NCBI GenBank assembly: GCA_964614945.1
Contig: CAZTNW010000003.1
Span: 72,838 to 136,837 of the forward strand
DNA from: an uncultured bacterium
GTDB taxonomy: Bacteria; Caldisericota; JANLFM01
Length of the DNA stretch: 64,000 nucleotides
Direction of reading: 5' to 3'
Part shown: positions 17,960 to 46,119 of the stretch, piece by piece
Layout of the letters: each line of letters opens with the position of its first letter
Position numbering within the stretch: the first letter of the stretch is position 1
The notes under the pieces: model-generated
Databases searched by the model: none
What the model was told of the DNA's origin: nothing
Seen by the model: only the letters and a program-made list of their open reading frames with translations
Translations under genes and position numbers: made by a program

Positions 17960-17985
17960 TTAAACCCTCCTTATGAGCTATCCCT

Positions 17986-20693: not shown

Positions 20694-21456
20694 TCATCAG
20701 CTCTTCCAATTTTTCCCCGGGAGATAAGGAAGCGCAGAGGGCTTCGCCGACCAGGACACCTGAAAACCCGGCATCTTTCAGCTCCCGAATATGAGACGGG
20801 GAATGAATTCCGGATTCACTGATGACTTTGATGGATTCCGGTATGAGCCTCTTCAAGTTGAACGATGTTTCCCTGTCAATCGCAAAAGTCTCCAGATCCC
20901 TGTTATTGATCCCTATGATCTTCGGATTGAGCTTCAGAGCACGGAAGAGCTCTTCTTCAGTATGAACCTCCATGATAACCTGCAGGTCAAGGTGCAAGGC
21001 CTCCATATAGAGCAGTTTCAGGTTTTCATCATCTAAGCAGGCCACAATGAGAAGAATGAAGTCAGCGCCGAGGTTGTAAGATTCATAAATCTGGTAAGGG
21101 TGAATGAGAAAATCCTTGCGCAGCACAGGAATTCTGATATTCCTTGCAATGGCTTTCAAATCCTCTTTCGAGCCAGAAAAGAAGTTCTTTTCCGTGAGGA
21201 CAGAGATCGCCCCTGCCCCCGCTCTCTCGTATAGTCTGGCCAGATCGAGAGCGTTAAGATCTTCTCGGATCATCCCTTTTGCGGGAGAGGCTTTTTTTAC
21301 TTCGGCGATGAAGAAAAAACCTGTCTCCATCAGTTGAAGGACATCGAGAGGCGGCTTCCTTTCCAGAAGATGGAATGAATCGGGGCGGAATGAATCAAAA
21401 TTCTCCCGCTCTTCGATTAAAATCCGGCTGGTGATCCGTTGCAGGATAACTTTCAT
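20686..21456 (-). CDS. trpC: indole-3-glycerol-phosphate synthase
   Basis: 256 aa; FIAEVKKASPAKG, LRKDF, IGINNRDL blocks. Confidence 0.9.
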   Translation of the reverse strand: MKVILQRITSRILIEERENFDSFRPDSFHLLERKPPLDVLQLMETGFFFIAEVKKASPAKGMIREDLNALDLARLYERAGAGAISVLTEKNFFSGSKEDLKAIARNIRIPVLRKDFLIHPYQIYESYNLGADFILLIVACLDDENLKLLYMEALHLDLQVIMEVHTEEELFRALKLNPKIIGINNRDLETFAIDRETSFNLKRLIPESIKVISESGIHSPSHIRELKDAGFSGVLVGEALCASLSPGEKLEELMNA

Positions 21457-24510: not shown

Positions 24511-24511
24511 T

Positions 24512-28026: not shown

Positions 28027-28679
28027 TCCAGCACCCTGCTTAAGCGAGAAACAAGAACCTGCATCCTCTTAAAAGCCAGCTGGCCTTCAGCAGTTTTTTC
28101 AGACTCCTCCAGGCAAGCATAGGTAAAAGGAGCTCCAAAAAAAGGAGCCACAATCCTCGTCAGAGAGGCTTTAGTCCCAGTTCCCAGGGCAATAATCCTC
28201 CCCCGGAAGTTTTCGAATTCCCCGTAGAGGGAGAGAATCCTCAGCATGTCTCTGACAGAAAGGCAGTTACAGGCAATTTTGCAGAGATCCGCTCCCTCGC
28301 TAAAACATTGCCTGACGATTCTTCTCAGCCGCGTGCCGGGGGGAGTTCCTGACTCATCATGATAGGACATAATCACCCGGCATCCTCTATCCCTGGCCAT
28401 CTTCAGGATCTCCTTCCTCGAGGACGCCGGCGAATCGACCTCAAGGTCCACATAGCCGGCCCCGGAACGGATCGCTTCCTTTAAGAGCAGAATCCTTTCG
28501 GTCTCGTGGAATAAGCCGGGTCGGCAAGTGGCTATAAGATTTGCCCGCGAAGAGAAGATCCGGGCAACTTCTTTTTTATTCAACTTGCACAGGTCGATCC
28601 GGACTTCCGCCAGGTCCACTTCTTTGAGGATCGCTGACAGCCGCTGAAGGTCTTTAATCGCCAGGCTTATGCAGATCAT
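28023..28679 (-). CDS. aroD: type I 3-dehydroquinate dehydratase
   Basis: 218 aa; TIM-barrel DHQase blocks (EVRIDL, GYVDLEVD, KIACN). Confidence 0.8.
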   Translation of the reverse strand: MICISLAIKDLQRLSAILKEVDLAEVRIDLCKLNKKEVARIFSSRANLIATCRPGLFHETERILLLKEAIRSGAGYVDLEVDSPASSRKEILKMARDRGCRVIMSYHDESGTPPGTRLRRIVRQCFSEGADLCKIACNCLSVRDMLRILSLYGEFENFRGRIIALGTGTKASLTRIVAPFFGAPFTYACLEESEKTAEGQLAFKRMQVLVSRLSRVLE

Positions 28680-29670
28680 CCATCACCTCAATAAGTTCAT
28701 CAAACGCAATATTTTCAATAGAAGCCTCCCCGATTGATTTCAGGAGGACGAAATCGATCGTCTCTCCTTTCTTCTTCTTATCTTTCCTGATGGATTCAAG
28801 AATCGCGCTCTTCGGAAAACGCAAGGAGACGGGAAGACGGTATTTAACAAGGAGAGACCGCAAGCGTTCGCGATCCGTTCTATCCATGAGCTTTTTCCTG
28901 ACCGAAAGATCTGCGGCCATCATCATACCCACAGCAACAGCCTCGCCGTGACTGAGCCCGTAATTCTTCTCAAAGGCGTGGGCGAAGCTGTGGCCGAAAT
29001 TAAGCTTTCTTCTTTCCTCTCTTTCTCTCTCGTCGCTTTCTACAATCGAAATTTTAATTTTGACAGTGTCCATGATGATTTTCTCGACGACCTTTCTTTC
29101 CAGGCTCAGGGCCAGCCGGTTGTTTTCTTCAAGGAACTGGAAAAGCCCTGCATCAGCGATTGCGGCGGTTTTGACGACCTCGGCAAATCCGCAGGATCTC
29201 TCTTTCGCGTCAAGCGTCGGGAGAAAAGAAGGGTTGATAAAGACAAAATCCGGCTGATTGAAAACTCCCACCATATTTTTATATCCCCTGAAGTTCACTC
29301 CGTTTTTCCCTCCAATGGCAGCATCCACTTGGGCAAGGAGCGTAGTCGGCACAAAAGCAAAATCCACCCCCCTCATGTAGGTCGAGGCAGCAAAGCCGGC
29401 GATATCACAGACCACGCCGCCGCCAATAGCAAGGATAAAAGACGACCTGTCGACACCCCCGGTTAGAAGCTTTTGATATATCGCCCTTACTGTTAGCAGT
29501 GTTTTAGCCTTTTCTCCGATGCCTATGACGATTTTTTGGCGGCAAAGAGGGAAAAAAACCTCATAAAGCCGGTTTACATTCTCATCAGTAATGAGGACGG
29601 TCCTCTCGCTGTCGATATGCTGCGCAACTTCTTCGAATGGACAGTTAAACAGGACGAGTGTCTTGATCAA
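28654..29670 (-). CDS. aroB: 3-dehydroquinate synthase
   Basis: 338 aa; [44 protein letters not shown] block. Confidence 0.9.
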
Positions 29671-30551
29671 TCTCTCATCTGCCCTTTCATAAAGTCTCTT
29701 AGAGCCGTTATTTTTTTAGCCGCGGCAGCAAACATCACAGGAGGCATAGCCTGTTCCCGGTCGCTTAAAGCCTCTTCGGGCTTGTAATGGACCTCTATGA
29801 TCAGGCCATCTGTTCCCGCTGCTACAGCAGCAAGGCTCATGGGTTCGATAAGACTCAGACGGCCTGTCCCATGAGAAGGATCAACAATCACGGGGAGATG
29901 GCTGATTTCCTTGACAGCTGGAATCATGCTCAAATCCAGGGTGTTTCGCGTATAAGTTTCAAAGGTGCGAATTCCCCTTTCACAGAGGATGACATTCCGA
30001 TTCCCCTCGGCCAGAATGTATTCAGCGCAATTCAGCCACTCTTCAAGAGTGGAATACATGCCCCTTTTGAGCAGAACGGGCTTGCCAATTTTTCCCACTT
30101 CTTTTAAAAGCGAATAATTCTGCATGTTTCGGGCGCCAACCTGGAGAATATCAGCGTACTCACACACCCATCCGGCATCCCGCGTGTCGACGACCTCGGT
30201 AACTACAGGAAGTCCAGTTTCCTCTCGTGCTTTAGCCAGGATTTTTAAGCCCTTAATGCCCAGTCCCTGGAATGAATAAGGAGAGGTTCGAGGTTTGAAT
30301 GCTCCACCGCGAAGCATGTTTGCCCCGGATTCTTTGACCTTCTGAGCGGTAATGATCGTCTGCTTCTCACTCTCCACGCTGCAGGGACCGGCAATAAGCA
30401 CGAAGTCGTCTCCAACCCTTATCCCTCGGACATCGATGATTGTCCTTTCTTTTTGAACGAGAAATGAATAAAGCTCTCGGCTCTCCGGTGAAGTCATCGT
30501 TTTTTGGTCAGATAAGCTTTTGTCTCCAGCAGAACTTCCTGTTAATAACAT
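29667..30551 (-). CDS. aroF: 3-deoxy-7-phosphoheptulonate (DAHP) synthase, class I-beta (KDO8P-synthase-like)
   Basis: 294 aa; [33 protein letters not shown] blocks; GGAGAGGAGG RBS upstream of ATG. Confidence 0.85.
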
Positions 30552-30736
30552 GATGATCGCCTCCTCTCCGCAATTGAGAATGAGATGAACAGGTAAGGGT
30601 TATTAAAAATGTGGTTATTCTAAAAAGGTAGGATTAAAGACTAATCGGGCGGGTTAGACCGCCCAATAAAAGTAAAAGGAAGGGGTCGCCTCAATTTGCT
30701 TCCGCTTGAGCAATTTGTTCTCTCTAAGCATGTGCC

Positions 30737-30766
30737 AATATAACGCAATCATTTTTTAAATGTCAA
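30737..30766 (-). promoter_or_regulatory. candidate sigma70-type promoter of the aro-trp-cys block
   Basis: On minus strand TTGACA (plus 30761-30766), 17-18 nt spacer, TTATAT/TATATT; about 180-nt leader to the DAHP synthase ATG. Confidence 0.4.
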
Positions 30767-30966
30767 GCGAACGAAATACTTGATAAAACTAGAAAAAAAT
30801 GTTTTTATGACAAGGAAATGGAAAAATTCATCCATTCAACAATAAATTCTGCCTTCTCCCATTATTTTTACTATTATGGGCCTCTGGCCCAGTAGAAGCG
30901 TCCTCTCCTTTCAAATCCTTTAAATATAAACCCCATCCTGAGTTTCACAAAAGAGGTGAGCATGGA

Positions 30967-32034
30967 ATGAAACTTGAACAGCTCCGAAAAAAAATCGATC
31001 AGATTGATTACGAGATCCTTCATCTGTTGAGAGAGAGGATGGAGCTCGGCCTTCGAGCTAATAAATTCAAAAAGACAACCCAGGACAAAGCCAGGGAACA
31101 ACAAGTGCTGAGGCGATTGGAAAAGCATTGTCGCCTTCTTCATCTGATTCCAAGCAGCTTCGCGTTGAAACTATTCGGGGAGATTATAAGGGAGAATCGC
31201 AGATTACAGGAACAAAAAAAGATCTTGATCGGGTTTCAGGGGAAGCATGGGGCCTTCGCTGAAGTCGCTGCCAAATACTACGACCCGCACTTGGTGACGA
31301 TCCCCTGTCAGGAATTTGCCGATGTGTGTGTCGGGGTGCAAGAGGGCTATCTGGATCTGGGCATTGTTCCTGTGGAGAACTCGTTGGGAGGACCTGTGGT
31401 CCAGGTAAATGAACAGCTGATAAAAACCGACTTGAAGGTCGTAGCCGCGGTTAAACTGCGGATCAATCATTGTCTCCTCGCTTTGCCTGAAACTAATTTC
31501 AGGGAAATAAGGGTTGTCTATTCTCATCCCCAAGCGCTCTCCCAGTGCCGCTCATTTTTGGAACAGTACCATCTGGAAACCCATCCCTATTACGACATCG
31601 CAGGAGCAGCAATAATGCTCAAGAAAGCAGAATTAAAAGCGGCTGCCGTTATTGCCAACCACCTCTGCGGAGAACTCTATAATCTGAAAATCATCAAGAA
31701 AAATATCGAGGATGACCCCTCCAATTTCACAAGATTTTTCATTCTGGGGAAGGGAGAGAACAGGATCGAGGCCGACAGGTGCTCGATCGTCTTTTCAATA
31801 CCTCACAGGGCGGGAGCATTATTCTCAATCTTCGAGATATTCGCCAGGGCCGATGTCAACCTGACAAGGGTCGAGTCCTTCCCAGAGCGGGGCGACCCGG
31901 ACTCCCATATCTTCCTCCTGGATTTCCAGAGTGAAGCGAAGCCAGATCAGCTCTGCAAGGTTCTTGAAGAGGTCAGAGCGAAAACAAAGACCTTGAAATA
32001 TCTTGGGCGTTACAGGGAAGAGCTATTCCCATGA
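30967..32034 (+). CDS. pheA: bifunctional chorismate mutase / prephenate dehydratase
   Basis: 355 aa; N-terminal chorismate mutase helix (LRKKIDQIDYEILHLLRERMEL), PDT domain, C-terminal ACT domain. Confidence 0.9.
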   Translation: MKLEQLRKKIDQIDYEILHLLRERMELGLRANKFKKTTQDKAREQQVLRRLEKHCRLLHLIPSSFALKLFGEIIRENRRLQEQKKILIGFQGKHGAFAEVAAKYYDPHLVTIPCQEFADVCVGVQEGYLDLGIVPVENSLGGPVVQVNEQLIKTDLKVVAAVKLRINHCLLALPETNFREIRVVYSHPQALSQCRSFLEQYHLETHPYYDIAGAAIMLKKAELKAAAVIANHLCGELYNLKIIKKNIEDDPSNFTRFFILGKGENRIEADRCSIVFSIPHRAGALFSIFEIFARADVNLTRVESFPERGDPDSHIFLLDFQSEAKPDQLCKVLEEVRAKTKTLKYLGRYREELFP

Positions 32035-32810
32035 AGATAGCAATTTTAGGGGCCGGTCATATGGGATCATGGCTTGCCGAAGTGCTGGCGGAAAGGAACA
32101 ACAGGATTGGCATCCATGATCTGGATCTTTCCAAGGTAGAGAAAATCCAGAAGGCCACCGCAATTCTCAGGTCATATGAAGAACTTAAGAAGTTTCAGCC
32201 TGAAATCCTTATCAATGCGGTAAGCCTGCAGAATACTCTCAAGGCCTATAAATCGGCTGAGCCCTATCTTACTTCTGGATGCCTGATAGCTGATGTGGCC
32301 TCGGTAAAATCGGGAATAGTCGGATACTACAGAAGATCCAGATTCCCTTTCGCTTCCGTTCACCCCATGTTTGGCCCGACATTTGCCAATGTGGAAAAAT
32401 TAGAGGATGAAAATGTGATCCTCATCAGTGAGTCTGATAGAGAAGGGATCAGGTTCTTTCGCGAATTATTCGCAGGGATGAGGTTGAATATCTTCGAATA
32501 TTCATTTGAGGAGCACGACCGGATGATCGCCTATTCACTTGTCCTTCCCTTCGCCTCAACCATGGTTTTTGCTACCTGCATGAATAATTCTGCCGTTCCC
32601 GGCAGTACCTTCAAAAAACACAGGGATATCGCGAAAGGCCTTCTCTCCGAGGATGATTATCTTCTGGCAGAAATACTTTTCAGCCCTTATTCTCTCCAAC
32701 AACTGGAACAGGTGACCCGTCGCCTGGAATTTCTCAAACATGTGATAAAGGCCAAGGACATCGAGGAAGCCCGGAAATTCTTCAGTTGCTTAAGAGAGAA
32801 TGTTCTCTAA
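32031..32810 (+). CDS. tyrA: prephenate dehydrogenase
   Basis: 259 aa; N-terminal Rossmann IAILGAGHMGSW, DVASVK block; overlaps pheA stop. Confidence 0.8.
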   Translation: MKIAILGAGHMGSWLAEVLAERNNRIGIHDLDLSKVEKIQKATAILRSYEELKKFQPEILINAVSLQNTLKAYKSAEPYLTSGCLIADVASVKSGIVGYYRRSRFPFASVHPMFGPTFANVEKLEDENVILISESDREGIRFFRELFAGMRLNIFEYSFEEHDRMIAYSLVLPFASTMVFATCMNNSAVPGSTFKKHRDIAKGLLSEDDYLLAEILFSPYSLQQLEQVTRRLEFLKHVIKAKDIEEARKFFSCLRENVL

Positions 32811-33935: not shown

Positions 33936-34229
33936 ATGGTGAAAGACTTTGACAAGGGAATTGTAAAGACAGACCCCTCCCGCAAGGTCGGGAAGGCCAC
34001 CATGCGCGTAATTATCTTCACCGAGCGCCACAGGGTAGAAGGTCGCGTACACGCGATCCCGGGCTCCCGTCTGATAGACTTTTTGAATGCGCCCGCTGAA
34101 TTTATCCCTTTGACCGACGCCGTCATTTTCAATTTAGATGATGAAAAGGAGCTCGGTCGTCAGCCCTTCGTGGCTGTGCGCAAACATTCCATCAACCTGC
34201 TCGTGGAAGCTGGCCAACCGGGGCTGTAG
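33936..34229 (+). CDS. hypothetical small protein
   Basis: 97-aa ORF with balanced composition and weak AGGA RBS; 3' end overlaps the tRNA-Ala start by 10 nt, so the reading frame is uncertain. Confidence 0.35.
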   Translation: MVKDFDKGIVKTDPSRKVGKATMRVIIFTERHRVEGRVHAIPGSRLIDFLNAPAEFIPLTDAVIFNLDDEKELGRQPFVAVRKHSINLLVEAGQPGL

Positions 34230-34294
34230 CTCAGCGGGAGAGCACCTCGCTTGCACCGAGGGGGTCAGGGGTTCAAATCCCCTCAGCTCCACCA
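34220..34294 (+). tRNA. tRNA-Ala (anticodon TGC)
   Basis: GGGGCTGTAGCTCAGC...CCTCG-CTTGCAC-CGAGG...GGGGTTCAAATCCCC...CAGCTCC-A-CCA; G3:U70 Ala identity pair; anticodon loop CTTGCAC; encoded CCA. Confidence 0.9.
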
Positions 34295-34523
34295 ATGGAA
34301 ATCGGATAGAATTTACTTCCCTTGCTTTCATGGGGTCAGGCTGAGAAGTTTCATTCTCTACCCGTGCCCTTAATTTAAATCGGTCTTAACACAATTAATG
34401 TAAAAAAGTTCTTATGGGAACCGTATATTTCTCGCATTTGATCTCGGCCTCTCTAACCAGCTTTGACATTTCTCCCTCTGAGGTAGGAAAATATCATTCA
34501 GCCTTGTGGGAAAAGGGGATGAG

Positions 34524-35567
34524 ATGAGAAAGGATTTCATAGATATACAGGACTTCTCGTCGCAGGAACTCTTCTCTCTGCTCGAACTCATAAAAGTGGT
34601 GAAAGCCGCGGGTAAGGAAAGAGCCCTGCCCGACCTCTTGCGCAAGGCCTCCCTGGCGATGATCTTCGAAGAACCATCCACCCGCACAAGGGTTTCTTTC
34701 GAAGTAGCGATGAGCAATCTCGGTGGCCATGCCCTGTATTTGCGCCCGGGGGAAATCCATCTGGGAGCGCGGGAAACTATCGCGGACACTGCCAGGGTCC
34801 TGAGCCGGATGGTGAATGGGATCGAGGCCCGCTTACTTCGCCATACAGACATCCTGGAGTTGGCCAAGTACGCTACAGTTCCGGTAATCAACGGCCTGAC
34901 TGATCTGCAGCATCCCACTCAGGTCCTCTGCGATGCCTTCACTATGCTTGAACACTCAGGGCGCCTTAAAGGCTTGAACCTTGCCTTTATCGGAGACTCT
35001 ACCAACGTCTGCAACTCTCTCCTGGTCATCGCAACAAAGTTAGGGATCAACTTCCTAATGGCCTCGCCCAAACGTTATCAGCCGGTGCCTTCCCTGCTTA
35101 GGCAGGCTGAGGAGAACGCCAGGAAAAGCGGCTCTCGCATCCTGATTGGTGAGGGTGTCGCCAATGCGGTTCAAGCAGCGGATTTCATCTATACGGATCT
35201 CTGGTGGTGGGTGGGCCAGGAGGCGGAAATCGATGATCGGATGAAGGCTTTCATGCCGCAGTATCAGGTGAATGCCAATCTGGCCAAAATAGCGCCGGCC
35301 CATGCCCATTTTATGCATTGTCTTCCTGCCTCGCGCGGCCTGGAGATCACCGACGAAATTATGGATGGAGCGCAGTCAATAGTGTTCGACCAGGCGGAAA
35401 ACCGCCTACACACCGAGGAAGCCCTGCTCATCGCCTTCCTGAGGCCTTATCTAAAGGGAAGCGGAGGACAAAGGGAAGCGGATTTTCAGACTCGAATCGA
35501 GCAAATCCTCTCGGATTTAGGGAATTTCCCCGGGAAAGGAGGTGCATATGGCACAAGAGAAGTTTAA
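34524..35567 (+). CDS. ornithine-carbamoyltransferase-fold transcarbamylase with atypical substrate loop
   Basis: STRTR, HPTQ and HCLPA motifs present; canonical OTC DxxxSMG loop reads TDLWWWVG; AAGGGG RBS favours ATG at 34524 (MRKDF...). Confidence 0.8.
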   Translation: MRKDFIDIQDFSSQELFSLLELIKVVKAAGKERALPDLLRKASLAMIFEEPSTRTRVSFEVAMSNLGGHALYLRPGEIHLGARETIADTARVLSRMVNGIEARLLRHTDILELAKYATVPVINGLTDLQHPTQVLCDAFTMLEHSGRLKGLNLAFIGDSTNVCNSLLVIATKLGINFLMASPKRYQPVPSLLRQAEENARKSGSRILIGEGVANAVQAADFIYTDLWWWVGQEAEIDDRMKAFMPQYQVNANLAKIAPAHAHFMHCLPASRGLEITDEIMDGAQSIVFDQAENRLHTEEALLIAFLRPYLKGSGGQREADFQTRIEQILSDLGNFPGKGGAYGTREV

Positions 35568-36942
35568 ACGGGTTTTGAATTATTGGGATCTTTTCTTCTT
35601 CACGGTTTGCGCAATTTTGGTGATGGATACCGTGGCCTCTTCGGCCGCCATCGGAAATCAATCATTTTTCTGGTGGTTGATCACTCTTTTTTTCTTTTTC
35701 CTTCCTTATGGCCTGATCACTGCTGAACTGGGGTCGGCCTGGCCATCCCAGGGCGGAATATATCTCTGGGTGAAGGAGGCACTCGGCGACGGGTGGGGGG
35801 TAATGACTTCCTGGCTCTACTGGATCAACGTGGCATTCTGGATGCCCTCGGTTTATCTTCTCTTTGCTGGGACCCTGGCGACCTTATTTTTCCCTGAAAT
35901 GAGCACCTGGGGTCAAGTGTTCATCGCCATCGGAATGACCTGGCTCACAGTTTTTCTGGGGATTATCGCCTTGGAAAAATCAAAATGGATCCCCAACCTG
36001 GGAGCGATATTCAAGGCCTTGATCATGCTTTTCCTCGGTGCGCTGGGAATCAGCTGGATAATCAGTAGGGGCTATGCCAATCCCTCCGCTTTCGCGGACT
36101 TCACCCCCTCCTGGTCCAACACACTCGCTTTTCTTCCCGTGGTGGTCTACAACTACATGGGCTTTGAGCTGATGAGCTCGGCCGGGGAGGAGATCAAACA
36201 TCCGCAGAGGAATGTCCCCAAGGCCATCATCTTCTCGGGGATCGCCATCTTCGTCCTCTACATCCTCGGCACTTTCGGCATACTCGCCATTTTGCCCCTG
36301 GACCAGATCTCCATTGTCACAGGGATTATTGACGCCATCAAAGCAGTGATGGTGGATTTGGGGACGACAGGAGAGATCCTATCTATCGTCTTCGGCATTG
36401 CAATCCTGTACTCCTTCCTCGCCAATATGATGACCTGGTCCATTGGAGCGAACAGGGTTGTGGCGGCGACGGCGGGTGAGAAAAAACTTCCCCTCTTCCT
36501 CGGCCATCTGAACCGGAAGTTCCGCACTCCCGATTTCGCCTTCATCGCCATGGGGATCCTGGGGACACTGCTTCTTGTGGGAAATGGTTTTCTCGCTGAG
36601 AACCCGGAGAATATTTTCTGGCAGCTATTCGCCCTCTCCAGCCTGCTCTTCCTCCTTCCCTACCTCCTCATGTTCCCGGCATTTTTACGCTTGCGCTACA
36701 CTCGTCCGGCCGTCTCCCGCCCCTACAGAGTGCCCGGGGGAAAGAGTCTGGCCTGGATCCTGGCGACTTTAGGTGAGTTTCTCATCCTTCTTTCCTGTAT
36801 CTTTTTCTTCCTTCCGCCAGAGGGAACGGAGAATGTCCTCATTTATGAACTCCAATTAGGCGGGGTCACGGTCATCGTACTGTTCTTGGGGCTGATCCTC
36901 TATCTTTGGCGAAAAACAGCGAGCAAATCGTCGAGAGGGTAG
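35548..36942 (+). CDS. APC-superfamily amino acid permease / antiporter
   Basis: about 12 hydrophobic segments; AAAGGAGG RBS before ATG at 35548; overlaps carbamoyltransferase stop. Confidence 0.85.
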   Translation: MAQEKFKRVLNYWDLFFFTVCAILVMDTVASSAAIGNQSFFWWLITLFFFFLPYGLITAELGSAWPSQGGIYLWVKEALGDGWGVMTSWLYWINVAFWMPSVYLLFAGTLATLFFPEMSTWGQVFIAIGMTWLTVFLGIIALEKSKWIPNLGAIFKALIMLFLGALGISWIISRGYANPSAFADFTPSWSNTLAFLPVVVYNYMGFELMSSAGEEIKHPQRNVPKAIIFSGIAIFVLYILGTFGILAILPLDQISIVTGIIDAIKAVMVDLGTTGEILSIVFGIAILYSFLANMMTWSIGANRVVAATAGEKKLPLFLGHLNRKFRTPDFAFIAMGILGTLLLVGNGFLAENPENIFWQLFALSSLLFLLPYLLMFPAFLRLRYTRPAVSRPYRVPGGKSLAWILATLGEFLILLSCIFFFLPPEGTENVLIYELQLGGVTVIVLFLGLILYLWRKTASKSSRG

Positions 36943-36951
36943 GAAAACAGG

Positions 36952-38178
36952 ATGATAAGAATTTTGCCCACACAAAGCAGCGAGTGGGAGAAAGTGGAGA
37001 TCGTCCTCCTCGCCAGACCGGGTCTCGAGACCCTTTTCGGCATTCTGGAGACAAACTCAGCCAATTTCCTCTATCCATTTGATCTGAAGAAAGCAGGGGA
37101 CGAGCACTCAGCTTTCCGCAGGCTGCTCGAGAGTTTTGGAGCAACCGTGATCGACATCCGCGAAGCCCTGACCGCCGGAACAACCGGGGAGGATAGTTCG
37201 TCGCTCGAGGGCCGGGCCCTCGAATCGCTCCGCGCCCTCGCAGAGAGAAGCCTGTCCTACCTGTACGATGAGGCCCTGGCCACGGAGGATCGGGAAATGC
37301 TGAGGGAAAATAAAGGGCGGACGATAAGAACCCTCCATCCCACAGCACTTGCGGAGATCGCTTTGCTGCGCCCCACCCTCTCGATCAGTTACAATCCGAA
37401 GGCCCTGGATCCAACGAGCCGCTTCATCTCGACTTTCCAACTAGAGCCAGCCACGAACCAGTATTTCATGCGCGACGGGATGATCACTACCCGGGCGGGC
37501 TGCGTAATAGGCAACCTCACGCTCGATGTGCGCAAAATCGAGAATGACCTGGTGGAATTCGCGCTCAAGCAACTGGGGATCAAGCCCATCTTCAGGGTGG
37601 AGCCCCCCGGACATTTAGAGGGCGGCGATTTTCTTCCCGCAGGAACACTCGTCCTCCAGGGGCAGGGCCTCCTCTCCGATGAAGAAGGCGTGAAGCAACT
37701 CCTGGAAAAGAAAGCCTACGGCTTCGTAGAGGTAGGGGTAATCAGAGACCCCCGTTCCCAGATGGATGAAATGCATCTCGACACCTATTTCAATTTTCTC
37801 TCGAGGAGAGAAGCGATACTATGCGAGGACAGGATGAAAGGTGATGCGGAACCTTCGGTCGATGTCTGGCTCCCCGAAGGTTCAGTGGATGATTACGTCT
37901 ATCGCAAGAGAAAAACTATCGCCTTCTCAAATTATCTGGAGGAGAAGGGAATCCGGGTGATCCCTTTCTCCAAGGAGGAACAGGGAAACTTCGCTCCTAA
38001 TTACCTTCTGCTCGGCGAGCGCAGGCTTATCGGGGTAAGCAGGGCCGGGGCTGAATTCTGGCGTAGAATCAGGGAGCGTGGAGTGGAGGCGCATCTTCTC
38101 GATTTCGATTCCCTAACGGGTGGGTACGGCGGCCCTCACTGCATGAGCCAGGTGATTCGCCGGACCCCTGAAATGTGA
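36952..38178 (+). CDS. arginine deiminase family (amidinotransferase superfamily) protein
   Basis: 408 aa; EMHLDT block and C-terminal GGPHCMSQ catalytic-Cys motif as in arginine deiminases. Confidence 0.8.
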   Translation: MIRILPTQSSEWEKVEIVLLARPGLETLFGILETNSANFLYPFDLKKAGDEHSAFRRLLESFGATVIDIREALTAGTTGEDSSSLEGRALESLRALAERSLSYLYDEALATEDREMLRENKGRTIRTLHPTALAEIALLRPTLSISYNPKALDPTSRFISTFQLEPATNQYFMRDGMITTRAGCVIGNLTLDVRKIENDLVEFALKQLGIKPIFRVEPPGHLEGGDFLPAGTLVLQGQGLLSDEEGVKQLLEKKAYGFVEVGVIRDPRSQMDEMHLDTYFNFLSRREAILCEDRMKGDAEPSVDVWLPEGSVDDYVYRKRKTIAFSNYLEEKGIRVIPFSKEEQGNFAPNYLLLGERRLIGVSRAGAEFWRRIRERGVEAHLLDFDSLTGGYGGPHCMSQVIRRTPEM

Positions 38179-38184
38179 TCAACC

Positions 38185-39309
38185 TCAGCCCAGCACTTCC
38201 TCGAGGAAAGCCATGATGACGGACATGGATTCCTTTATGGAAGAAATCTCCACGGATTCGTTAGGCTGGTGGGCCAGGCGTACGTCACCCGGACCGTAGA
38301 TCGCAAAAGGCGGCAGGTGCTGGGGAAAGAGGGTGGGGAGATCGGTGCAGAAAGTGGCGGTGCGCAGCGCCATGTTTCGTTTGGTCTCGCGCTCGAAAGC
38401 CCTGCAGAAAGACTGGACCATTCCTGAATTGAAATCTGAGAGGAGTGGCCTTTTGTAACTGATAATGTCACAGCTCATATTGGCACCTTCTCGCTCAGTC
38501 GCTCTCTGATTGAGAAGGTGCATCACCCAATCTTTCTCCTCCTCGGCCCCGAGGCGAAAATCCAGGTCGGCCCTGCAAAAGTCCGGTACGATATTGATGC
38601 GCCTTCCGCCCTCGATCCTCCCTATATTCAGGCTAGGTGATCCAAAGTAAGGTCTGGGGGGCGCATTCCTCACTTTCTCAGCCAGGGAGAGCAGGAAATG
38701 GCTGCAGGCGAGGATGGCGTTGACTCCTTCGCCCGGGATAGAACCGTGAGCCTCCTTGCCGGAGAATTTCAGGGAGATCCACAACTCCGCCTTCTCGCCG
38801 AAGAGGATTTCTCCACCTGTGGGCTCCGCCTCCAGAACGAAGAGAGCGTCATCCAAAAAGCCTGCTTCGGCAAACGAGGCCGCACCGCGGTACTGGTTCT
38901 CCTCGTCGGCTGTAAGCAGAATCTTCAAAGACAGGCGGGGTTTACCTTTTGCTTTTATTTCCTTCGCACACTGTAAGAGAAGCGCAACCCCAGCCTTCAT
39001 ATCGGAGGCGCCGAGGCCGTAAATTCGACTGGATCGTTCCTGTGCATGAAATGGATCGGAGAGCCATCCCTCAGCCGGCTCCACCGTATCCAAGTGACCG
39101 GTGAGGACGACGGAGCCTCTTTCCCTCCCTTCAATCTGGCAAAAGAGGGATGTGCGGCCGGGCGCTAAGGAAAAAAGGGATGAAGAGAGACCCCACTCCT
39201 TCAGCAAAGCCTGGATATACCTGCAGATTTGCTCTTCGTTTCCGGGAGGGTTGGCCGTATTTATGGAAATAAGCTTCTTCAGCAGTTCACAAGCATTATC
39301 CGGCATTTT
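38185..39309 (-). CDS. M20 family metallo-hydrolase (ArgE/DapE-type deacylase)
   Basis: HLDTVEPAEGW, GASDMKAG, EENQ metal-binding blocks; likely start at Met 17 of ORF 38185..39357. Confidence 0.8.
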   Translation of the reverse strand, partial: KMPDNACELLKKLISINTANPPGNEEQICRYIQALLKEWGLSSSLFSLAPGRTSLFCQIEGRERGSVVLTGHLDTVEPAEGWLSDPFHAQERSSRIYGLGASDMKAGVALLLQCAKEIKAKGKPRLSLKILLTADEENQYRGAASFAEAGFLDDALFVLEAEPTGGEILFGEKAELWISLKFSGKEAHGSIPGEGVNAILACSHFLLSLAEKVRNAPPRPYFGSPSLNIGRIEGGRRINIVPDFCRADLDFRLGAEEEKDWVMHLLNQRATEREGANMSCDIISYKRPLLSDFNSGMVQSFCRAFERETKRNMALRTATFCTDLPTLFPQHLPPFAIYGPGDVRLAHQPNESVEISSIKESMSVIMAFLEEVLG

Positions 39310-39736
39310 TTGAACGCTCGAAAATCCTCTCCACAGCGTAACGCACGAGCTTAACACAACATTCGGAATGTATTTTTTCCTTGTAGAGCTTCAAGTCATC
39401 AGACCGGGAAAAGTCCATTCCGCTCAGCTCAAAACAATTAATCGAGCCGAATTTTTGCTGGAAATCATTAATGAAGCGGGAGGCTTCAGCATAGCATTTA
39501 TCCTTGCTCTCATTGCTTTGGTCACGGCCCCAGAGAAGGTCGAGGGCGATTAGGGCGCCGGTAACAGCTCCGCAGACATTTTTCGTGCGCGACATACCGC
39601 CCCCGAAAGCAGTGGCTATGCGAGGTATAATTTCGTTCTTCCGGTCAAGATATCTTGCCAGGGCGGTCAAGGTGGACTCGGCGCAATTGAGCCCGTCATC
39701 GAAGATGGACTGGGCGAAATCCTGAATCTCTGACAT
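39296..39736 (-). CDS. C_GCAxxG_C_C family protein (putative redox-active)
   Basis: 146 aa; NCAES...CGAVTG...C...CC cysteine pattern. Confidence 0.7.
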   Translation of the reverse strand: MSEIQDFAQSIFDDGLNCAESTLTALARYLDRKNEIIPRIATAFGGGMSRTKNVCGAVTGALIALDLLWGRDQSNESKDKCYAEASRFINDFQQKFGSINCFELSGMDFSRSDDLKLYKEKIHSECCVKLVRYAVERIFERSKNAG

Positions 39737-39990
39737 TATCCATCCTTTTCCTTTCTCGCTGAGTTCAGCGTTAATTGTCCCAATTTTTGCTCGAGTTGGG
39801 AAGCAAAAAATCTAAATTCGCTGAATTTCTTGTTAAAACTATTGACAAACATCCGTTCTATTTTCTAAAATGCAAGTACAGTTGCACCGAAGGAATAGGC
39901 CTCTCCCGCCTACTTCGGTCTACCGCGGAGAGCCAGGGACAATGCAGTCCTTGGCTCTCAACCTTTCCCGGCGTAAAATCTGAATGGAAA

Positions 39991-41661
39991 ATGGAAGAGT
40001 TGGCCGGAGTATTAGAGCGAGTCTCTCAAACTTCGAGGACAGGTGAGAAAACAGCCCTCGTCTCAGATTATCTGAGACGACTGAACTACAGGGAACTATC
40101 CCTTGCCGCCCTCTATCTCAGCGGAAGGCTCCTCCCACACGGCGCTCCTTTTAAATTAAATGTGGGCTGGAAGCTAATCCTTGACTCTCTGGATAAACTG
40201 AACAGGCTAATCGACGACTCTTTCGGTGAAACTTACAGGCGGTTCGGAGACCTGGGTCAGACGGCCTGGTTTCTTCTGCATGATCGAGGTGTCCTCCCCT
40301 CTTTCTCATCACTCGCCCTCTCGGAGCTGGCTGACGAGTTGGAGAAGATTGCCCTAATCAGCGGGAAGAGCTCGAGGAAAGAGAAAGACATCCGCCTCGA
40401 AGAAATCTTCCGCCGGTTGAGCCCGCTGGGATTGAAGTACCTGATTCGCCTCTTGCTCGGAGATCTACGTGTCGGCCTGAAAGAGAGTCTAGTGGAAAAG
40501 GCTATCGCTCTCGCCTTTTCAGAACCCCTCTCTTCCATCCGCCGAGCTAATCTGCTCCTGAGTGATATCGGGGAGGTCGCTCTGCTGGCACAAGCTCAAA
40601 AGACGAGGGAAGCGTCTTTGCGACCACTTCGTCCCCTTCATTTCATGCTGGCGGACACCCTGCTTGATACCGCAGAACCCTTCAGAAAAGGATCCGGGCT
40701 GCTTCTAGCCGAGGATAAGTACGATGGGATCCGCGCCCAGTTGCATTACTACAAAGGCGAGGTGGCGATCTTCTCCAGGAACTTAGAGAAGATCGGGCCT
40801 CATTTTCCTGAGATCGAAGAGAGCGCAAAAGCATGGGGCCACGACCTGATCCTGGATGGGGAAATTATCTCTCTGAAAGATGAGGTCGCCCAGCCTTTTT
40901 CTCTGCTTCAGCAGAGGCTGCACCGGAAAAAAGTGGAGAGATGGAAAGAGGTCGTCCCCGTCTCTTACATCGCTTTCGATCTTCTTTATCTCGACGGTAC
41001 CAGCCTTCTTGGCTCGCCGCTCGAGAGCCGGCAAGCGTTACTGCGAGGGCTGAGCTGGCCGCCGGGCTTTCAAATGGTTCACCAGATCGAGGTCGGCACC
41101 GAGCAGGAGCTCAGGTGTGCTTTTAACAATGCGCGGGAGCGGGGAAATGAGGGATTGATGCTGAAGGAGATAAGATCCCTCTACTCTCCGGGGAGCAGAG
41201 GGAAGCAGTGGTTGAAATTTAAAAAAGAGCTCACTACCCTGGATTGCCTGATCGTGACTGTGGAATGGGGGCACGGAAAGCGAGCGGGCCTTCTCTCCGA
41301 TTACACCTTTGCTGTGAAAGGACACGGCGGTGATTTGCTCACCATCGGCAAAGCCTACTCCGGCCTAACCGACAGGGAGATTAAATCGATGACCGCCTGG
41401 TTCCTCGAGCATTGTCTGCAGGATGAAGGCTGGCGGCTTCAGGTGGAACCGAAGATAGTCGTAGAGATTGCCTTCAATCAGATCCAAAGGAGTCCCCGGC
41501 ACACGAGCGGCTTCGCCCTGCGCTTCCCTCGCATCAAAAGAATCCGCGATGATAAACTGCCTGAGGAAATCGACACGATCGAGACAGTGGAAAAATTTTT
41601 CTTGAAGGAGAAAAGAGACCATGAAGATCGAGGAGTTTGCGGCGTACAGGGAGCGGATTAA
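39991..41661 (+). CDS. lig: ATP-dependent DNA ligase
   Basis: Adenylation motif KYDGIRAQ (KxDGxR) plus downstream OB-fold region; ORF track start 39775 extended, ATG at 39991 (MEELAGV...) fits ligase N-terminus. Confidence 0.85.
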   Translation: MEELAGVLERVSQTSRTGEKTALVSDYLRRLNYRELSLAALYLSGRLLPHGAPFKLNVGWKLILDSLDKLNRLIDDSFGETYRRFGDLGQTAWFLLHDRGVLPSFSSLALSELADELEKIALISGKSSRKEKDIRLEEIFRRLSPLGLKYLIRLLLGDLRVGLKESLVEKAIALAFSEPLSSIRRANLLLSDIGEVALLAQAQKTREASLRPLRPLHFMLADTLLDTAEPFRKGSGLLLAEDKYDGIRAQLHYYKGEVAIFSRNLEKIGPHFPEIEESAKAWGHDLILDGEIISLKDEVAQPFSLLQQRLHRKKVERWKEVVPVSYIAFDLLYLDGTSLLGSPLESRQALLRGLSWPPGFQMVHQIEVGTEQELRCAFNNARERGNEGLMLKEIRSLYSPGSRGKQWLKFKKELTTLDCLIVTVEWGHGKRAGLLSDYTFAVKGHGGDLLTIGKAYSGLTDREIKSMTAWFLEHCLQDEGWRLQVEPKIVVEIAFNQIQRSPRHTSGFALRFPRIKRIRDDKLPEEIDTIETVEKFFLKEKRDHEDRGVCGVQGAD

Positions 41662-42063: not shown

Positions 42064-44286
42064 TCAGCGAATAAGCCTGTCCCTTAAAATCGAGTGAAGG
42101 GCCTCTGGTTGTGCCGGGAGAGACTGAGGGAAAGAACCGAGAGCATCCCGAATGGCATTGAAGACAGCGGGGGCCACCCCGATCATGGTCATTTCACCCA
42201 CTCCCTTGGCTCCATAAGGACCTACCGGGTCAGGTACCTGAACGATTAAAGGTATGATCTCGGCGGGCATGTCCTGGACTGCGGGGATAATATAGGTGCC
42301 GAGGTTTGGAGTCAGGATGCGCCCATGCGCGAGCTTGAATTCTTCCATCAGGGCGAACCCCTGGCCCATTAACACCCCTCCGTAGAACTGCCCGAGAACA
42401 ATTTGCGGGTTCACGGCCTTGCCCAGGTCAGCGGCAGCGACTATCCTCAAGATCTCCACTTCTCCCGTTAAAGTATCCACTTCCAGTTCAACGATGTCGG
42501 TCGCATAGCCATAGCTCTGATGTGGCACGCATTGTCCTTGATTATTCATAGGAGTCGTGGGCCTGACTGCCTGCGTGCGATGCAGATATTCGGCATCGAC
42601 GATACCCCTCTTCCCTGCTGCTATTTGCGCTTGCAGAGCCTTTGCTGCCTCCAGAACAGCTCGTCCGGTGACAAAAACCTGCCTAGAAGCGGAGTTTGAT
42701 CCGCCATCAGGCGTACAGCAAGTATCGGGCTGGCGGAATTCGATCTTGCTCAAGGGGAGAGTGAGGGTTTCTGCCGCGATCTGACATAAGGCCGTGTGCA
42801 ACCCCTGGCCGCTGTCTGTAACGCCGACCATCAGTGAGGCCGTTTCGATCTGGCCCGAGGGCGCCACCTGCGCTTGGATCCTCACGCGGGATTGATCGTC
42901 GTAGCCGAAACTGTAACCGATATTCTTGTATACGCAAGCCACTCCCCTACCCCGGATCCGATCGGGCCGCACAGGCGATTTTGCCAGCGGAGCGACCCAG
43001 CCGGAATTTCCATTACTCCAGCCAGCCTTTGAGGCTGCCTGGAGTAATGTCTCCTTTATTCCCACCCCGGGTGGAATCCGGTTCCCCGTAGGGAGAATTG
43101 CTCCTTCCTCCAGTAAATTTCGCAGACGGAATCCCACCGGGTCCATATTCAAGGCCCGCGAGGCCTCCTCGACGAGGCTTTCGTGAATCAAGGGCACCTG
43201 GGCTGAGCCGAAACCCCGCATGGCCATAGTCGAAATGTTATTGGTGTAGACGGTCCTTCCGCGAACATGTACGTTTGGGATGTCGTAAGGCCCGCAGGCG
43301 TAAGAGACCGCATTGGCGAGGACGGCGATAGAGGTGGAGGCGTAAGCGCCGGCATCAGTGAGAAGGTCAATCTCCATTGCCATAATCCTTCCTCCTCTCA
43401 CTCCAATTTTCCCTTTCATATAGAAAGGGTGGCGCTTTCCGTGACCACGAATGGACTCCTCCCGAGAATAGACAAGCTTAACCGGACAGCGCAGCCGGAA
43501 TGCTGCTAAGGCTGTAAGGATCTGCAGGGAAATATCCTCCCGGCCGCCGAAAGCACCGCCTGTTGGCATCAATATCACCCGCACTTCTTCTTCAGATAGA
43601 TTTAGGGCGTGGGCGATCTGGCGCCTATCATCGAAAATCCACTGGGAGCCGACATAAACCGTGATCCTGCCTTCATCATCGATCAGGCCGACCGCTGCCT
43701 CCGGCTGAAGGAAGGCGTGTTCGTTGAATGGAGTGCTGATCTCCCTCTCCAGGACAAGATCTGCCCGGGCGAAGGCCTCTTTCACCTCTCCGTGCCTGAG
43801 CTCGAAGGCTTGGAGAAGGTTCGATCCTGTCTGCTCGTGTACCAGGGGTGCGCTTTCCTCTAGAGCCTCGCCGGGGTGGAATACTCCCGGGAGGACCTCG
43901 TAACTAACCTTGATTCTCTCCAGGGCCAGGGATGCCTGCTGCTCAGTTTCAGCTACTATAAGAGCAACCGGGTCTCCGATGGACCGTACCTTCTTTCCCG
44001 CCAGCACCTCCTGATCGTAAACTAAGATGCCGAACTCGTTGCGGGGAACATCCAGGTAGGTGAACACCTTCCTCACTCCCGGCATCGCTTCTGCTTCGGA
44101 GAGGTCAATGCCAAGAATTCGGGCATGTGAGTGAGCGGAGAAAAGGACTTTGGCGTATAACATATTCGGGAAGTAAAGGTCTCCGGAAAACCTCGTCTCT
44201 CCGGATACTTTTCCCGGGGCATCCACCTTAGGGAACTCCTTGCCCAAGTAACTCATTGGCATCCGCGGTTCCTCTTTCACCTGCAT
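42064..44286 (-). CDS. xanthine dehydrogenase / aldehyde oxidase family molybdopterin-binding subunit
   Basis: 740 aa; MPTGGAFGGRED and C-terminal GAKGVGE active-site-type blocks typical of Mo hydroxylase large subunits. Confidence 0.85.
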   Translation of the reverse strand: MQVKEEPRMPMSYLGKEFPKVDAPGKVSGETRFSGDLYFPNMLYAKVLFSAHSHARILGIDLSEAEAMPGVRKVFTYLDVPRNEFGILVYDQEVLAGKKVRSIGDPVALIVAETEQQASLALERIKVSYEVLPGVFHPGEALEESAPLVHEQTGSNLLQAFELRHGEVKEAFARADLVLEREISTPFNEHAFLQPEAAVGLIDDEGRITVYVGSQWIFDDRRQIAHALNLSEEEVRVILMPTGGAFGGREDISLQILTALAAFRLRCPVKLVYSREESIRGHGKRHPFYMKGKIGVRGGRIMAMEIDLLTDAGAYASTSIAVLANAVSYACGPYDIPNVHVRGRTVYTNNISTMAMRGFGSAQVPLIHESLVEEASRALNMDPVGFRLRNLLEEGAILPTGNRIPPGVGIKETLLQAASKAGWSNGNSGWVAPLAKSPVRPDRIRGRGVACVYKNIGYSFGYDDQSRVRIQAQVAPSGQIETASLMVGVTDSGQGLHTALCQIAAETLTLPLSKIEFRQPDTCCTPDGGSNSASRQVFVTGRAVLEAAKALQAQIAAGKRGIVDAEYLHRTQAVRPTTPMNNQGQCVPHQSYGYATDIVELEVDTLTGEVEILRIVAAADLGKAVNPQIVLGQFYGGVLMGQGFALMEEFKLAHGRILTPNLGTYIIPAVQDMPAEIIPLIVQVPDPVGPYGAKGVGEMTMIGVAPAVFNAIRDALGSFPQSLPAQPEALHSILRDRLIR

Positions 44287-44413
44287 TGTAGGTTCGTTTC
44301 TGAAAAAGCGTCAAGTAAGGAAGGGAGAGACAAATCCCCAAAATTCGCTTGAATAAAGGAATAGGCGGCTTTAGACTTGACAAAGCTATCCGGAGGATAC
44401 TATCCTACCGCCC

Positions 44414-45025
44414 ATGTGTCCAAAAAAGAGGTTCGAGCGAGGGACACTTCTCTTGCTTGTAATCTTCTTATTGCTCTTTGGTTGCCAGGCAATGGCGACA
44501 CAAATAGAGAGGACCGGAATACTGAGCGCACCTATTGCTTCGGGACAATACACCGGCGCTTCCAATCGGATTGTGCTGGAAAGGGAGATACTGGTAGAGA
44601 CGGATTTTCCAGCCCACCCCCAAGCCCATGAGGTAATCTCGCTTCGAAAAATTCTGAAGGAAGTAAACGCGGATCCCTCAGGAGATCCTCTCCTCGTTGG
44701 AACATACCATAAAGAGGGGTGCTTTGAATTTCTATCTGCTCTTTTTTATCTGGCCGGGATTGACTTCAGATCAGCTCTGAGCGGGGCGCACGATGTATCC
44801 TCACTCGAGAACGGCGACATCGTGAAAATCGAGAATTCCACCTATTACGGCCTGCCGCATTGGGGCATTTTTCTCGATGGCCTGGTCTTTCATAACTGGG
44901 ATGGCTACCGCGCCGAGTTTTTCGCCGATTTTCTCGAAACTTACATGCTTCCCGGCTCCGCACATTTAATTCTGCGGCCGAGCTATCATCTTCCCTCAGC
45001 CTCGGCCCTCATCTACCCCCGATGA
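44414..45025 (+). CDS. hypothetical lipoprotein
   Basis: 203 aa; signal peptide with lipobox-like LLLFGC. Confidence 0.5.
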   Translation: MCPKKRFERGTLLLLVIFLLLFGCQAMATQIERTGILSAPIASGQYTGASNRIVLEREILVETDFPAHPQAHEVISLRKILKEVNADPSGDPLLVGTYHKEGCFEFLSALFYLAGIDFRSALSGAHDVSSLENGDIVKIENSTYYGLPHWGIFLDGLVFHNWDGYRAEFFADFLETYMLPGSAHLILRPSYHLPSASALIYPR

Positions 45026-45030
45026 ACGAA

Positions 45031-46119
45031 TTACCAGGATCCTCCCGACTTCACTAGGGTCATGAGCTGCTCCCCGGTCAAATTATCGATTCCCAGTTTC
45101 TCCACTGTTCGCCCGCTGGCCCAATAGTCTACCTGATGGAGAATGGAGGCCAAATGGATGAAGACGGAAAAGGTAGGAACGCTCACCCCGTACTTCATCC
45201 CAATTGAAGCAATAGGAACAAGGCTCATCGGGATATCTTCCGTTAGGTAGCGAGTCTGTAGCGTTGGAGGTGCCTGAATCCCGTAATAACCGACATTGTT
45301 CTGCATGGCCTCGAAAAGATTAGAACCACTGGCGTCGTAGGCCATCTCGAGCCAATCCCGCGCAGAGAGAGCATCAATCCCGAGGGCCTTCGCTACATTC
45401 AGGCGTTCGGCATCGAGGGTCTCCAGGATCCTGGAGACAGTGGGTGAATTGCCCTCGATATAATATTGAAAATCCCCGCGCGTGTTCTCGATCCGCGCGG
45501 CGTTAAGGATGGTCAAGGTGGGATGGAAAATGGCCCCGATATTATCCAGGCTCGTCCTTAAAACATTCTGGGCAGGGACAAACTCTGGATAGGCCTGGCG
45601 GACCACGGACAGGACATGCGCCGTATCCGTAGCGGGGAGAGCGGCAACGGGAATAGAATTTTTGATTCGAAAGATTTTCACCTGGGCAGGGTTTAGCGCT
45701 CTGCTGGCGTAGATAAAGGTCTGCGCTTCTGCGACAAAAACATCTGCCCGGCAGCCCTCCTCGCGCAAGACGTTGCGGAACTCAATCGCCCCTCCGGTTC
45801 TCCCTGGATTCAACAGGACAATTTGACCATCTTTCAAGTGAGGAGCGGCCTTCTCTGCCATGAAGCGGTGGCCGTTTGCCGGCACCACCACCATCAGTAC
45901 ATCTGCATCACGAATGGCCAGGGCAGGATCGGTAGTTGCAAGGGAAATCGGGGCAAAACCCTGCACTTCTCCCTCTATCTCAATTCCCCCTCTTGCGGTC
46001 ACAGGCTCCAAGCGAAATTGACTGCGATTGAAGAGCGAGACTTCAAAACCCTTGAGCACCAGGTGCGCGGCCATAGCCAAACCACCATTCCCCGCACCTA
46101 AGACACAGAATCTGGGCAT
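45031..46119 (-). CDS. NAD(P)-dependent opine-dehydrogenase / ketopantoate-reductase-like oxidoreductase
   Basis: 362 aa; N-terminal Rossmann FCVLGAGNGGLAMA; overall resemblance to octopine/nopaline dehydrogenase family. Confidence 0.6.
   Translation of the reverse strand: MPRFCVLGAGNGGLAMAAHLVLKGFEVSLFNRSQFRLEPVTARGGIEIEGEVQGFAPISLATTDPALAIRDADVLMVVVPANGHRFMAEKAAPHLKDGQIVLLNPGRTGGAIEFRNVLREEGCRADVFVAEAQTFIYASRALNPAQVKIFRIKNSIPVAALPATDTAHVLSVVRQAYPEFVPAQNVLRTSLDNIGAIFHPTLTILNAARIENTRGDFQYYIEGNSPTVSRILETLDAERLNVAKALGIDALSARDWLEMAYDASGSNLFEAMQNNVGYYGIQAPPTLQTRYLTEDIPMSLVPIASIGMKYGVSVPTFSVFIHLASILHQVDYWASGRTVEKLGIDNLTGEQLMTLVKSGGSW

Follow-up and report, generated by a model that had tools for sequence, protein, structure and literature searches.

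Which guanidino compound is processed by the transcarbamylase, permease and deiminase encoded side by side at positions 34524 to 38178 of the window, by which we mean the whole 64,000-nucleotide stretch of contig CAZTNW010000003.1, from an uncultured bacterium of the Caldisericota, that was analyzed here? In our assessment, the operon is probably an agmatine deiminase system in which AguA, the deiminase of the PAD_porph family, has been displaced by a deiminase of the arginine deiminase (ADI) family, the two being different families that share the same pentein superfamily fold. The transcarbamylase and the permease match their counterparts in AguA operons over their full lengths and in the same gene order, and the third gene alone differs; the first two are ordinary components, and the unusual element is the deiminase recruited in place of AguA, which carries a simple candidate switch of specificity. 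The five genes of the cluster reported in the initial annotation are all present:

34524 to 35567, plus strand: transcarbamylase, putrescine carbamoyltransferase-like, 347 amino acids, with OTCace_N and OTCace domains and TIGR04384 as best model
35542 to 36942, plus strand: APC-family permease, 466 amino acids, Pfam AA_permease_2, its start possibly being the ATG at 35548
36952 to 38178, plus strand: ADI-fold deiminase, 408 amino acids, of the clade termed group A below, PF02274 at 119.8 bits
38185 to 39357, minus strand: M20 ArgE/DapE-family deacylase, TIGR01910 at 223 bits
39296 to 39736, minus strand: C_GCAxxG_C_C protein, on the same strand as the M20 gene, PF09719 at 95.7 bits

The transcarbamylase and permease genes overlap by 26 nt, and the permease and deiminase genes are separated by 9 nt, a spacing that fits one operon.

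A putrescine carbamoyltransferase-like transcarbamylase

The published signature of putrescine carbamoyltransferase (PTC) combines the STRT and HCLP motifs with the absence of the lysine that ornithine carbamoyltransferase (OTC) places two residues before STRT to pair with the ornithine carboxylate, (Y/W)(G/W)(V/L/I)X in place of XSMG, and a C-terminal helix, within an extension of about 20 residues bearing (L/f/v/i)XX(F/Y/L/M/v)(L/i/m) (Polo et al. 2012, PMC3282769). The window transcarbamylase contains EEPSTRTR, HPTQ, GDSTNV, YTDLWWWVGQE and (M)HCLPASRG and a C-terminal extension of ~35 residues. STRT and HCLP are thus both present; the residue two before STRTR is Glu, where the aligned OTCs have Lys and the Enterococcus faecalis PTC has Gln; the 230-loop reads D-L-W-W-W-V-G, in which W, W, V and G fit the PTC pattern; and GDST stands where OTC has GDGN. 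The C-terminal extension holds I-E-Q-I-L, in which the Ile at position 4 lies outside the published PTC set. The DxxxSMG loop and lysine of OTC are both missing, with WWVG and Glu in their place. STRTR, HPTQ, HCLP and TDLWWWVG had all been listed in the initial annotation and all four were found, and the altered ornithine-binding loop that it described is real, but it is not novel, being the known PTC signature and the norm among the 120 closest database proteins, of which all but one show WWW[VI]G or a close variant of it and many already bear the name PTC. The proposal that the transcarbamylase substrate is not ornithine is supported by this loop signature together with the loss of the OTC lysine.

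The best NCBIfam model is the PTC model TIGR04384, with an end-to-end match at 451.6 bits, followed by those for OTC (379 bits), N-acetylornithine carbamoyltransferase (158.9 bits), aspartate carbamoyltransferase (154 bits) and YgeW (61-67 bits). The OTC score exceeds the cutoff of the general model TIGR00658 (280.85), so annotation pipelines would call the protein an OTC. A YgeW or purine-catabolism link, considered because of the nearby molybdenum hydroxylase and M20 genes, was ruled out by the YgeW score.

The window protein is 61-63% identical to the PTCs of verified AguA operons, and its identity to E. faecalis PTC (46%) is about the same as to Pyrococcus furiosus OTC (50%). A neighbor-joining tree gave the bacterial WWW-loop sequences a clade of their own at 84% bootstrap, with the window protein inside it and grouped at 99% with Caldisericota and Aerophobetes sequences. 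Loci from Thermanaerothrix (L009) and an alphaproteobacterium (L010) encode PTC, permease and AguA in that order, their PTCs scoring 544 and 525 bits on TIGR04384 and their AguA proteins 610 and 582 bits on TIGR03380, and L010 also has a carbamate kinase. A metagenome scan covered the 80 loci whose PTC is nearest to that of the window: AguA was encoded in 58 (in 13 of them with carbamate kinase as well) and an ADI-fold deiminase in 4, no locus had the two together, and the other 18 were empty or too short. By genomic context this loop type is PTC, and the motifs and model scores support our reading of the window transcarbamylase as putrescine carbamoyltransferase-like rather than an ornithine enzyme.

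These observations bear on the possibility that the operon is an ordinary archaeal-type ADI pathway, in which arginine would be converted to citrulline and the transcarbamylase would act as a catabolic OTC, which we regard as improbable. E. faecalis PTC does show weak OTC activity, but changing its 230-loop to SMG shifts its specificity toward ornithine (PMC3282769), and the window enzyme has neither the OTC lysine nor the SMG loop and has its closest relatives beside AguA.

Two further sets of PTC-like proteins were observed. Archaeal homologs of 312-316 residues (L005:7682-8620, L016 and L094:4676-5614) carry the full PTC loop and Glu signature and have near-equal scores with the PTC and OTC models (424 versus 416 bits). 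In the case of an Aerophobetes locus (L011:8001-11149), a PTC-like gene with the variant loop LWYWIG lacks a permease and adjoins an Amidohydro_3 gene and a 71-residue remnant that matches the ADI-fold deiminase; the cluster may be decaying or have been rewired.

The permease

The window permease shares 48% identity over its full length with the permeases located between PTC and AguA in L009 and L010; its identity with the counterparts in the Korarchaeota and Caldisericota clusters described below is 63-78%. From this similarity it is predicted to be an agmatine/putrescine antiporter.

An arginine deiminase fold with half of the carboxylate clamp

The deiminase belongs to the ADI family but lies at a great distance from canonical ArcA. 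Against its PF02274 match, the arcA model TIGR01078 scores only 66.6 bits with a cutoff of 489.1, and no AguA signal (PF04371, TIGR03380) was detected in the protein, nor any AguA-like open reading frame (ORF) in the window. Comparison with ADIs in the PDB by phmmer gave E ~1e-6, or 1e-19 with a family profile. An AlphaFold2 model built from 118 homologs (pLDDT 96.8) has ADIs as its best PDB matches, which extend over its whole length with the helical insert included (TM 0.75, 17-22% identity), with DDAH and the amidinotransferases far behind. The protein has the features expected of an ADI fold, namely the pentein domain with helical insert, Cys-His-Glu and two Asp residues, and its homologs come almost only from uncultured lineages.

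Active site residues were mapped by profile alignment to the Pseudomonas aeruginosa ADI, in which, in keeping with the conserved G-x-G-E-R motif, we take Leu41, Asn160, Arg185 and Arg243 to be the equivalents of residues that contact the amino acid end of the substrate in the Mycoplasma arginini enzyme:

C397, equivalent to P. aeruginosa C406: kept
H275, equivalent to P. aeruginosa H278: kept
D277, equivalent to P. aeruginosa D280: kept
E223, equivalent to P. aeruginosa E224: kept
D175, equivalent to P. aeruginosa D166: kept
N169, equivalent to P. aeruginosa N160: kept
R194, equivalent to P. aeruginosa R185 and M. arginini R180: kept
L241, equivalent to P. aeruginosa R243 and M. arginini R232: changed
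N38, equivalent to P. aeruginosa L41 and M. arginini Leu44: changed

In M. arginini ADI, the substrate's α-amino and α-carboxylate groups are contacted by Leu44, Asn155, Arg180, Arg232 and Gly392, and it is Arg180 and Arg232 that bind the carboxylate (PMC3474736). Only one of the two carboxylate-binding arginines is therefore present in the window deiminase, R194 being kept and its partner replaced by L241. Loss of half of the carboxylate clamp is what would be expected if the substrate had become decarboxylated arginine, that is, agmatine. The initial annotation had suggested a guanidino substrate other than free arginine, and this is supported: the protein probably does not function as an arginine deiminase, and agmatine is the likely compound to put in arginine's place. 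We predict from these residues and from its operon partners that the deiminase works like AguA without being a member of that family, as an agmatine deiminase analog.

The same evidence has another side. In fold, size and helical insert the protein is like an ADI, it keeps the catalytic residues and one carboxylate-binding arginine, and published work has taken the Korarchaeum gene to be arcA (PMC11032458, PMC5052871), all of which would suit the ordinary arginine pathway introduced above. That literature arcA homolog of Korarchaeum is probably the deiminase gene of this cluster. Set against the arginine pathway are the distance of the arcA score from its cutoff and the behavior of the clade to which the window deiminase belongs.

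A derived clade, part of it linked to the putrescine carbamoyltransferase

Deiminase homologs from 80 genome loci and extra loci were aligned, and they fall into two clades. Group A comprises 42 sequences with at least 45% identity to the window deiminase, except L044 (39%), and has 88% bootstrap support; its clade-specific residues are Asn/Ser at 38, Leu/Phe at 241 and Asp at 153, and every PTC-linked member falls within it. Its sister clade, group B, comprises 43 sequences of no more than 39% identity that have Leu and Arg as in bacterial ADIs, and some of its members adjoin an OTC of the SMG/Lys type (L080) or a carbamate kinase (L083, L084). Linkage to PTC and permease was found in 12 of the 42 group A loci and in none of the 43 group B loci (p=8e-5). 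Group A has thus lost both the Arg and the Leu that contact the amino acid end of arginine, whereas the sister clade keeps them, and this speaks against arginine as the substrate.

An exhaustive hidden Markov model search of 1.84 billion representatives returned 305 proteins at E<=1e-30; among the best 150 of these, ~112 have Leu/Arg and only ~6-8 have Asn/Leu, the latter being the top matches. As judged from these sequences, group A forms a small derived clade within an extensive ADI-like family, one that probably corresponds to the "Archaea plus Eukaryota" ADI clan described by Novak et al. (PMC5052871); the group B clusters are mostly unnamed, and one representative is green-algal, which fits the archaeal/eukaryotic clan without proving it.

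A separate observation concerns an Actinomycetes metagenome-assembled genome (MAG) (L034:2773-11185), in which a complete canonical arcD-arcA-arcB-arcC operon, its arcB being of the SMG, Lys type, is followed ~2.4 kb downstream by a group A (Asn/Leu) deiminase gene. The presence of such a gene beside a complete arc operon suggests that it is not a redundant ADI.

Linkage across two domains and the convergent M20 and C_GCAxxG_C_C genes

PTC (with WWWVG and EEPSTRTR), permease and ADI-fold deiminase are encoded together in further loci of both Bacteria and Archaea:

Caldisericota: L003, L012, L013 and L095-L099
Korarchaeota: L005/L006, L016 and L018
Metagenome contig whose genes cluster with Korarchaeota sequences: L094
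Nitrososphaerota MAG: L019
"Thermococci" MAG: L015, in the order permease-deiminase-transcarbamylase
Bacillota MAG: L093, in the order deiminase-transcarbamylase-permease

Three gene orders are found overall, the two just given and the transcarbamylase-permease-deiminase order, and the persistence of the linkage in both domains despite such rearrangement makes a good case that the genes are functionally coupled.

The same comparison bears on the two minus-strand genes, which do converge on the cluster as had been described, with 6 nt between the stop codons of the deiminase and M20 genes. The initial annotation had named them when proposing, for example, an N-acylated or other ureido substrate, and on that idea the M20 deacylase and C_GCAxxG_C_C protein would take part in processing such a compound. 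They converge on the operon in every Caldisericota-like locus, as that idea would have it, but there the synteny extends to DNA ligase, CMD and molybdenum hydroxylase genes, so that the pairing reflects general synteny among close relatives rather than function. The pair is absent from the Korarchaeota, other archaeal and Bacillota versions of the cluster (L005, L016, L093, L094), and this distribution marks both genes as lineage-specific neighbors and rules out the M20 gene as a pathway partner. The score with the N-acetylornithine model is also far below that of the PTC model. An N-acylated substrate is consequently very improbable, the likely substrates being N-carbamoylputrescine for the transcarbamylase and agmatine for the deiminase, and a partnership with the two convergent genes was not borne out.

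Another alternative keeps the same chemistry and changes the substrate to another guanidino-amine that lacks an α-carboxylate, such as N1-aminopropylagmatine, homoagmatine, arcaine or N1,N9-bis(guanidino)homospermidine, with the matching carbamoyl-amine, and then the amine and carbamoyl phosphate, as products. Loss of one carboxylate-binding arginine says only that the substrate is not an α-amino acid; AguA homologs accept a bis-guanidino compound, bis(guanidino)homospermidine (PMC13625781); and the Korarchaeum cluster abuts a gene of the deoxyhypusine synthase family and an alanine-racemase-fold decarboxylase gene. We nevertheless think such a substrate unlikely, since the PTC active-site motifs are the same as in the PTCs of AguA operons, the permease is a full-length counterpart of the permeases in those operons, and polyamine-type neighbors are confined to some archaeal loci and have weak model matches. 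A related proposal, that the deiminase and its PTC-like partner carry out phosphorolytic salvage of a larger guanidino-polyamine (N1-aminopropylagmatine or bis(guanidino)homospermidine) instead of agmatine, which would yield spermidine or homospermidine and carbamoyl phosphate, strikes us as unlikely. To our knowledge, there is no precedent for such a phosphorolytic salvage pathway.

The Korarchaeum neighbors themselves lie on the convergent flank (L005:11171-13142), where a 344-residue alanine-racemase-fold decarboxylase with weak lysA and nspC similarity is encoded with a protein of the deoxyhypusine synthase family that scores 317 bits with the deoxyhypusine synthase model (cutoff 350) and 152 bits with the 1,9-bis(guanidino)-5-aza-nonane synthase model. 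This flank is a possible polyamine link. Polyamine neighbors were not relied on as support for putrescine, the saccharopine dehydrogenase-like protein of L094 and the L005 decarboxylase having weak scores of 66 and 45 bits with carboxynorspermidine synthase and decarboxylase models.

The proposed pathway and the evidence that weighs against it

In the agmatine deiminase system that we favor, the APC permease would exchange external agmatine for internal putrescine, and the ADI-fold deiminase would turn agmatine into N-carbamoylputrescine, releasing ammonia, with Cys397 as the putative nucleophile assisted by His275 and Glu223, and with Asp175 and Asp277 holding the guanidinium group. The PTC would then phosphorolyze N-carbamoylputrescine to putrescine and carbamoyl phosphate, which could be used to form ATP by a carbamate kinase encoded elsewhere or enter biosynthesis. 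The analysis itself establishes which genes are present and in what order, their family placement, the PTC signature, the linkage across phyla and the clade-specific active-site substitutions; which compound is the substrate, that the pathway runs in the catabolic direction and that it conserves energy are inferred.

A number of findings weigh against this reading. The transcarbamylase score with TIGR04384 is below the curated cutoff of 500, and in the neighbor-joining tree the WWW-loop clade joins E. faecalis PTC, the sole biochemically characterized PTC, at only 53% bootstrap. The archaeal (Korarchaeal) PTC-like proteins are without the C-terminal helix-13 extension, which has been described as constant in and exclusive to PTCs. 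In the deiminase, the retention of R194 is unexpected beside the ammonium group of agmatine. Thirty of the 42 group A loci, mainly from Chloroflexota, are stand-alone with no PTC nearby, and given this majority the function of group A need not be tied to PTC. Finally, as the initial annotation had noted for the immediate neighborhood, carbamate kinase is missing: the entire 64 kb contains no carbamate kinase-like ORF by tblastn (E<=1e-3) or by phmmer with five carbamate kinase queries (E<=10), and the kinase adjoins none of ~14 ADI-fold-type clusters compared with 13 of 58 AguA-type loci (p=0.06). The diagnostic value that had been attached to a missing adjacent kinase is not sustained, since only those 13 of the 58 canonical AguA-PTC loci had one within the flank. 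Korarchaeum cryptofilum is among the archaea listed with an arcC homolog (PMC11032458).

Locus boundaries and the surrounding window

Two features lie ahead of the operon:

34220 to 34294, plus strand: tRNA-Ala(TGC), the upstream boundary of the operon (Rfam RF00005, 70.2 bits; ARAGORN)
34463 to 34492, plus strand: promoter-like site TTGACA-18-GAAAAT, weak evidence from a consensus scan

The tRNA gene is 230 nt upstream of the operon, and a Shine-Dalgarno-like AAGGGGA run immediately precedes the transcarbamylase ATG at 34524. Promoter and terminator scans gave site counts no higher than the shuffled expectation, and the Rfam scan detected only the tRNA and no riboswitch upstream of the operon. 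On the opposite side, the probable true extent of the M20 gene is 38185-39306, with a start matching the identical gene called in L001. Pfam scans of ~50 window ORFs identified housekeeping genes only (aromatic amino acid and trp genes, topoisomerase, ClpB, enolase), with no arginine decarboxylase among them.

Several other features of the window were recorded. A small DUF6812 ORF (97 residues, PF20660) in the 33936-34294 region overlaps the 5' end of tRNA-Ala(TGC) by 10 nt, and DUF6812 likewise lies upstream of PTC in the Caldisericota-like loci L003 and L095, there after a multi-PAS protein of >1000 residues. The ATP-dependent DNA ligase ORF at 39775-41661 has a TTG start and ~72 extra N-terminal residues compared with orthologs of 541-553 residues (L003/L004), and its true start is probably near Met73. 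At 42064-46119, a xanthine dehydrogenase-type molybdopterin subunit (740 residues), whose relatives occur as two tandem copies, has no adjoining genes for FAD or Fe-S subunits; it is followed by a 203-residue protein without a family match and an octopine/nopaline dehydrogenase-like gene. A long aromatic amino acid supercluster at 17108-32810 runs from DAHP synthase to chorismate synthase and then through trpE, TrpG-TrpD, trpC, trpF, trpB and trpA, with fusions in TrpG-TrpD (529 residues) and shikimate dehydrogenase-kinase (432 residues), and is followed by divergent pheA- and tyrA-like genes. Three ORFs of 347, 243 and 725 residues at 2022-3065 and 9447-12348 are without a Pfam match, and the latter two adjoin an ABC ATPase gene and a two-component system.

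Comparison with known systems

Both known routes from agmatine to N-carbamoylputrescine use the same enzyme family, AguA (PMC12283126, 2025), and in the accessible literature we found no report of an ADI-family agmatine deiminase. The modest form of our explanation is that a second, ADI-derived family of agmatine deiminases may be common to bacteria and archaea. If this is correct, it would be another functional replacement in polyamine metabolism, with Arg to Leu and Leu to Asn as a simple candidate switch; it would correct the names "arginine deiminase" and "ornithine carbamoyltransferase" that pipelines give these genes; and uncultured Caldisericota and Korarchaeota would be credited with agmatine fermentation, or with putrescine production.

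The closest known system is aguBDAC of E. faecalis, Streptococcus mutans and Listeria (EC 2.1.3.6, 3.5.3.12, 2.7.2.2), which likewise comprises PTC, an APC antiporter and a deiminase, and the window gene order is that of many environmental AguA operons (L009, L010 and the 58 metagenome loci). Unlike aguBDAC, however, the window has no carbamate kinase in the operon or elsewhere in its 64 kb, and its deiminase is a PF02274 ADI-family protein with a helical insert instead of AguA (PF04371/TIGR03380). The transcarbamylase resembles E. faecalis PTC (PDB 3TXX, 4A8H) in having no lysine before STRTR, an aromatic/hydrophobic 230-loop, GDxT and a C-terminal extension, but its loop is WWVG at OTC length, compared with YGLY with a one-residue shift, and its helix-13 motif, IEQIL, is not exactly within the published pattern. 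In the case of ArcA (P. aeruginosa 1RXX/2A9G, M. arginini 1LXY, and the archaeal/eukaryotic ADI clan), the window deiminase shares the fold, length and helical domain, the Cys-His-Glu triad, the two guanidinium-binding Asp residues and one carboxylate-binding Arg (R185/R180). It differs from ArcA in its 17-22% identity, in Leu at the position of R243/R232 and Asn at that of Leu41/44, in a score far under the arcA cutoff, and in being partnered with a transcarbamylase of the PTC type rather than the SMG type.

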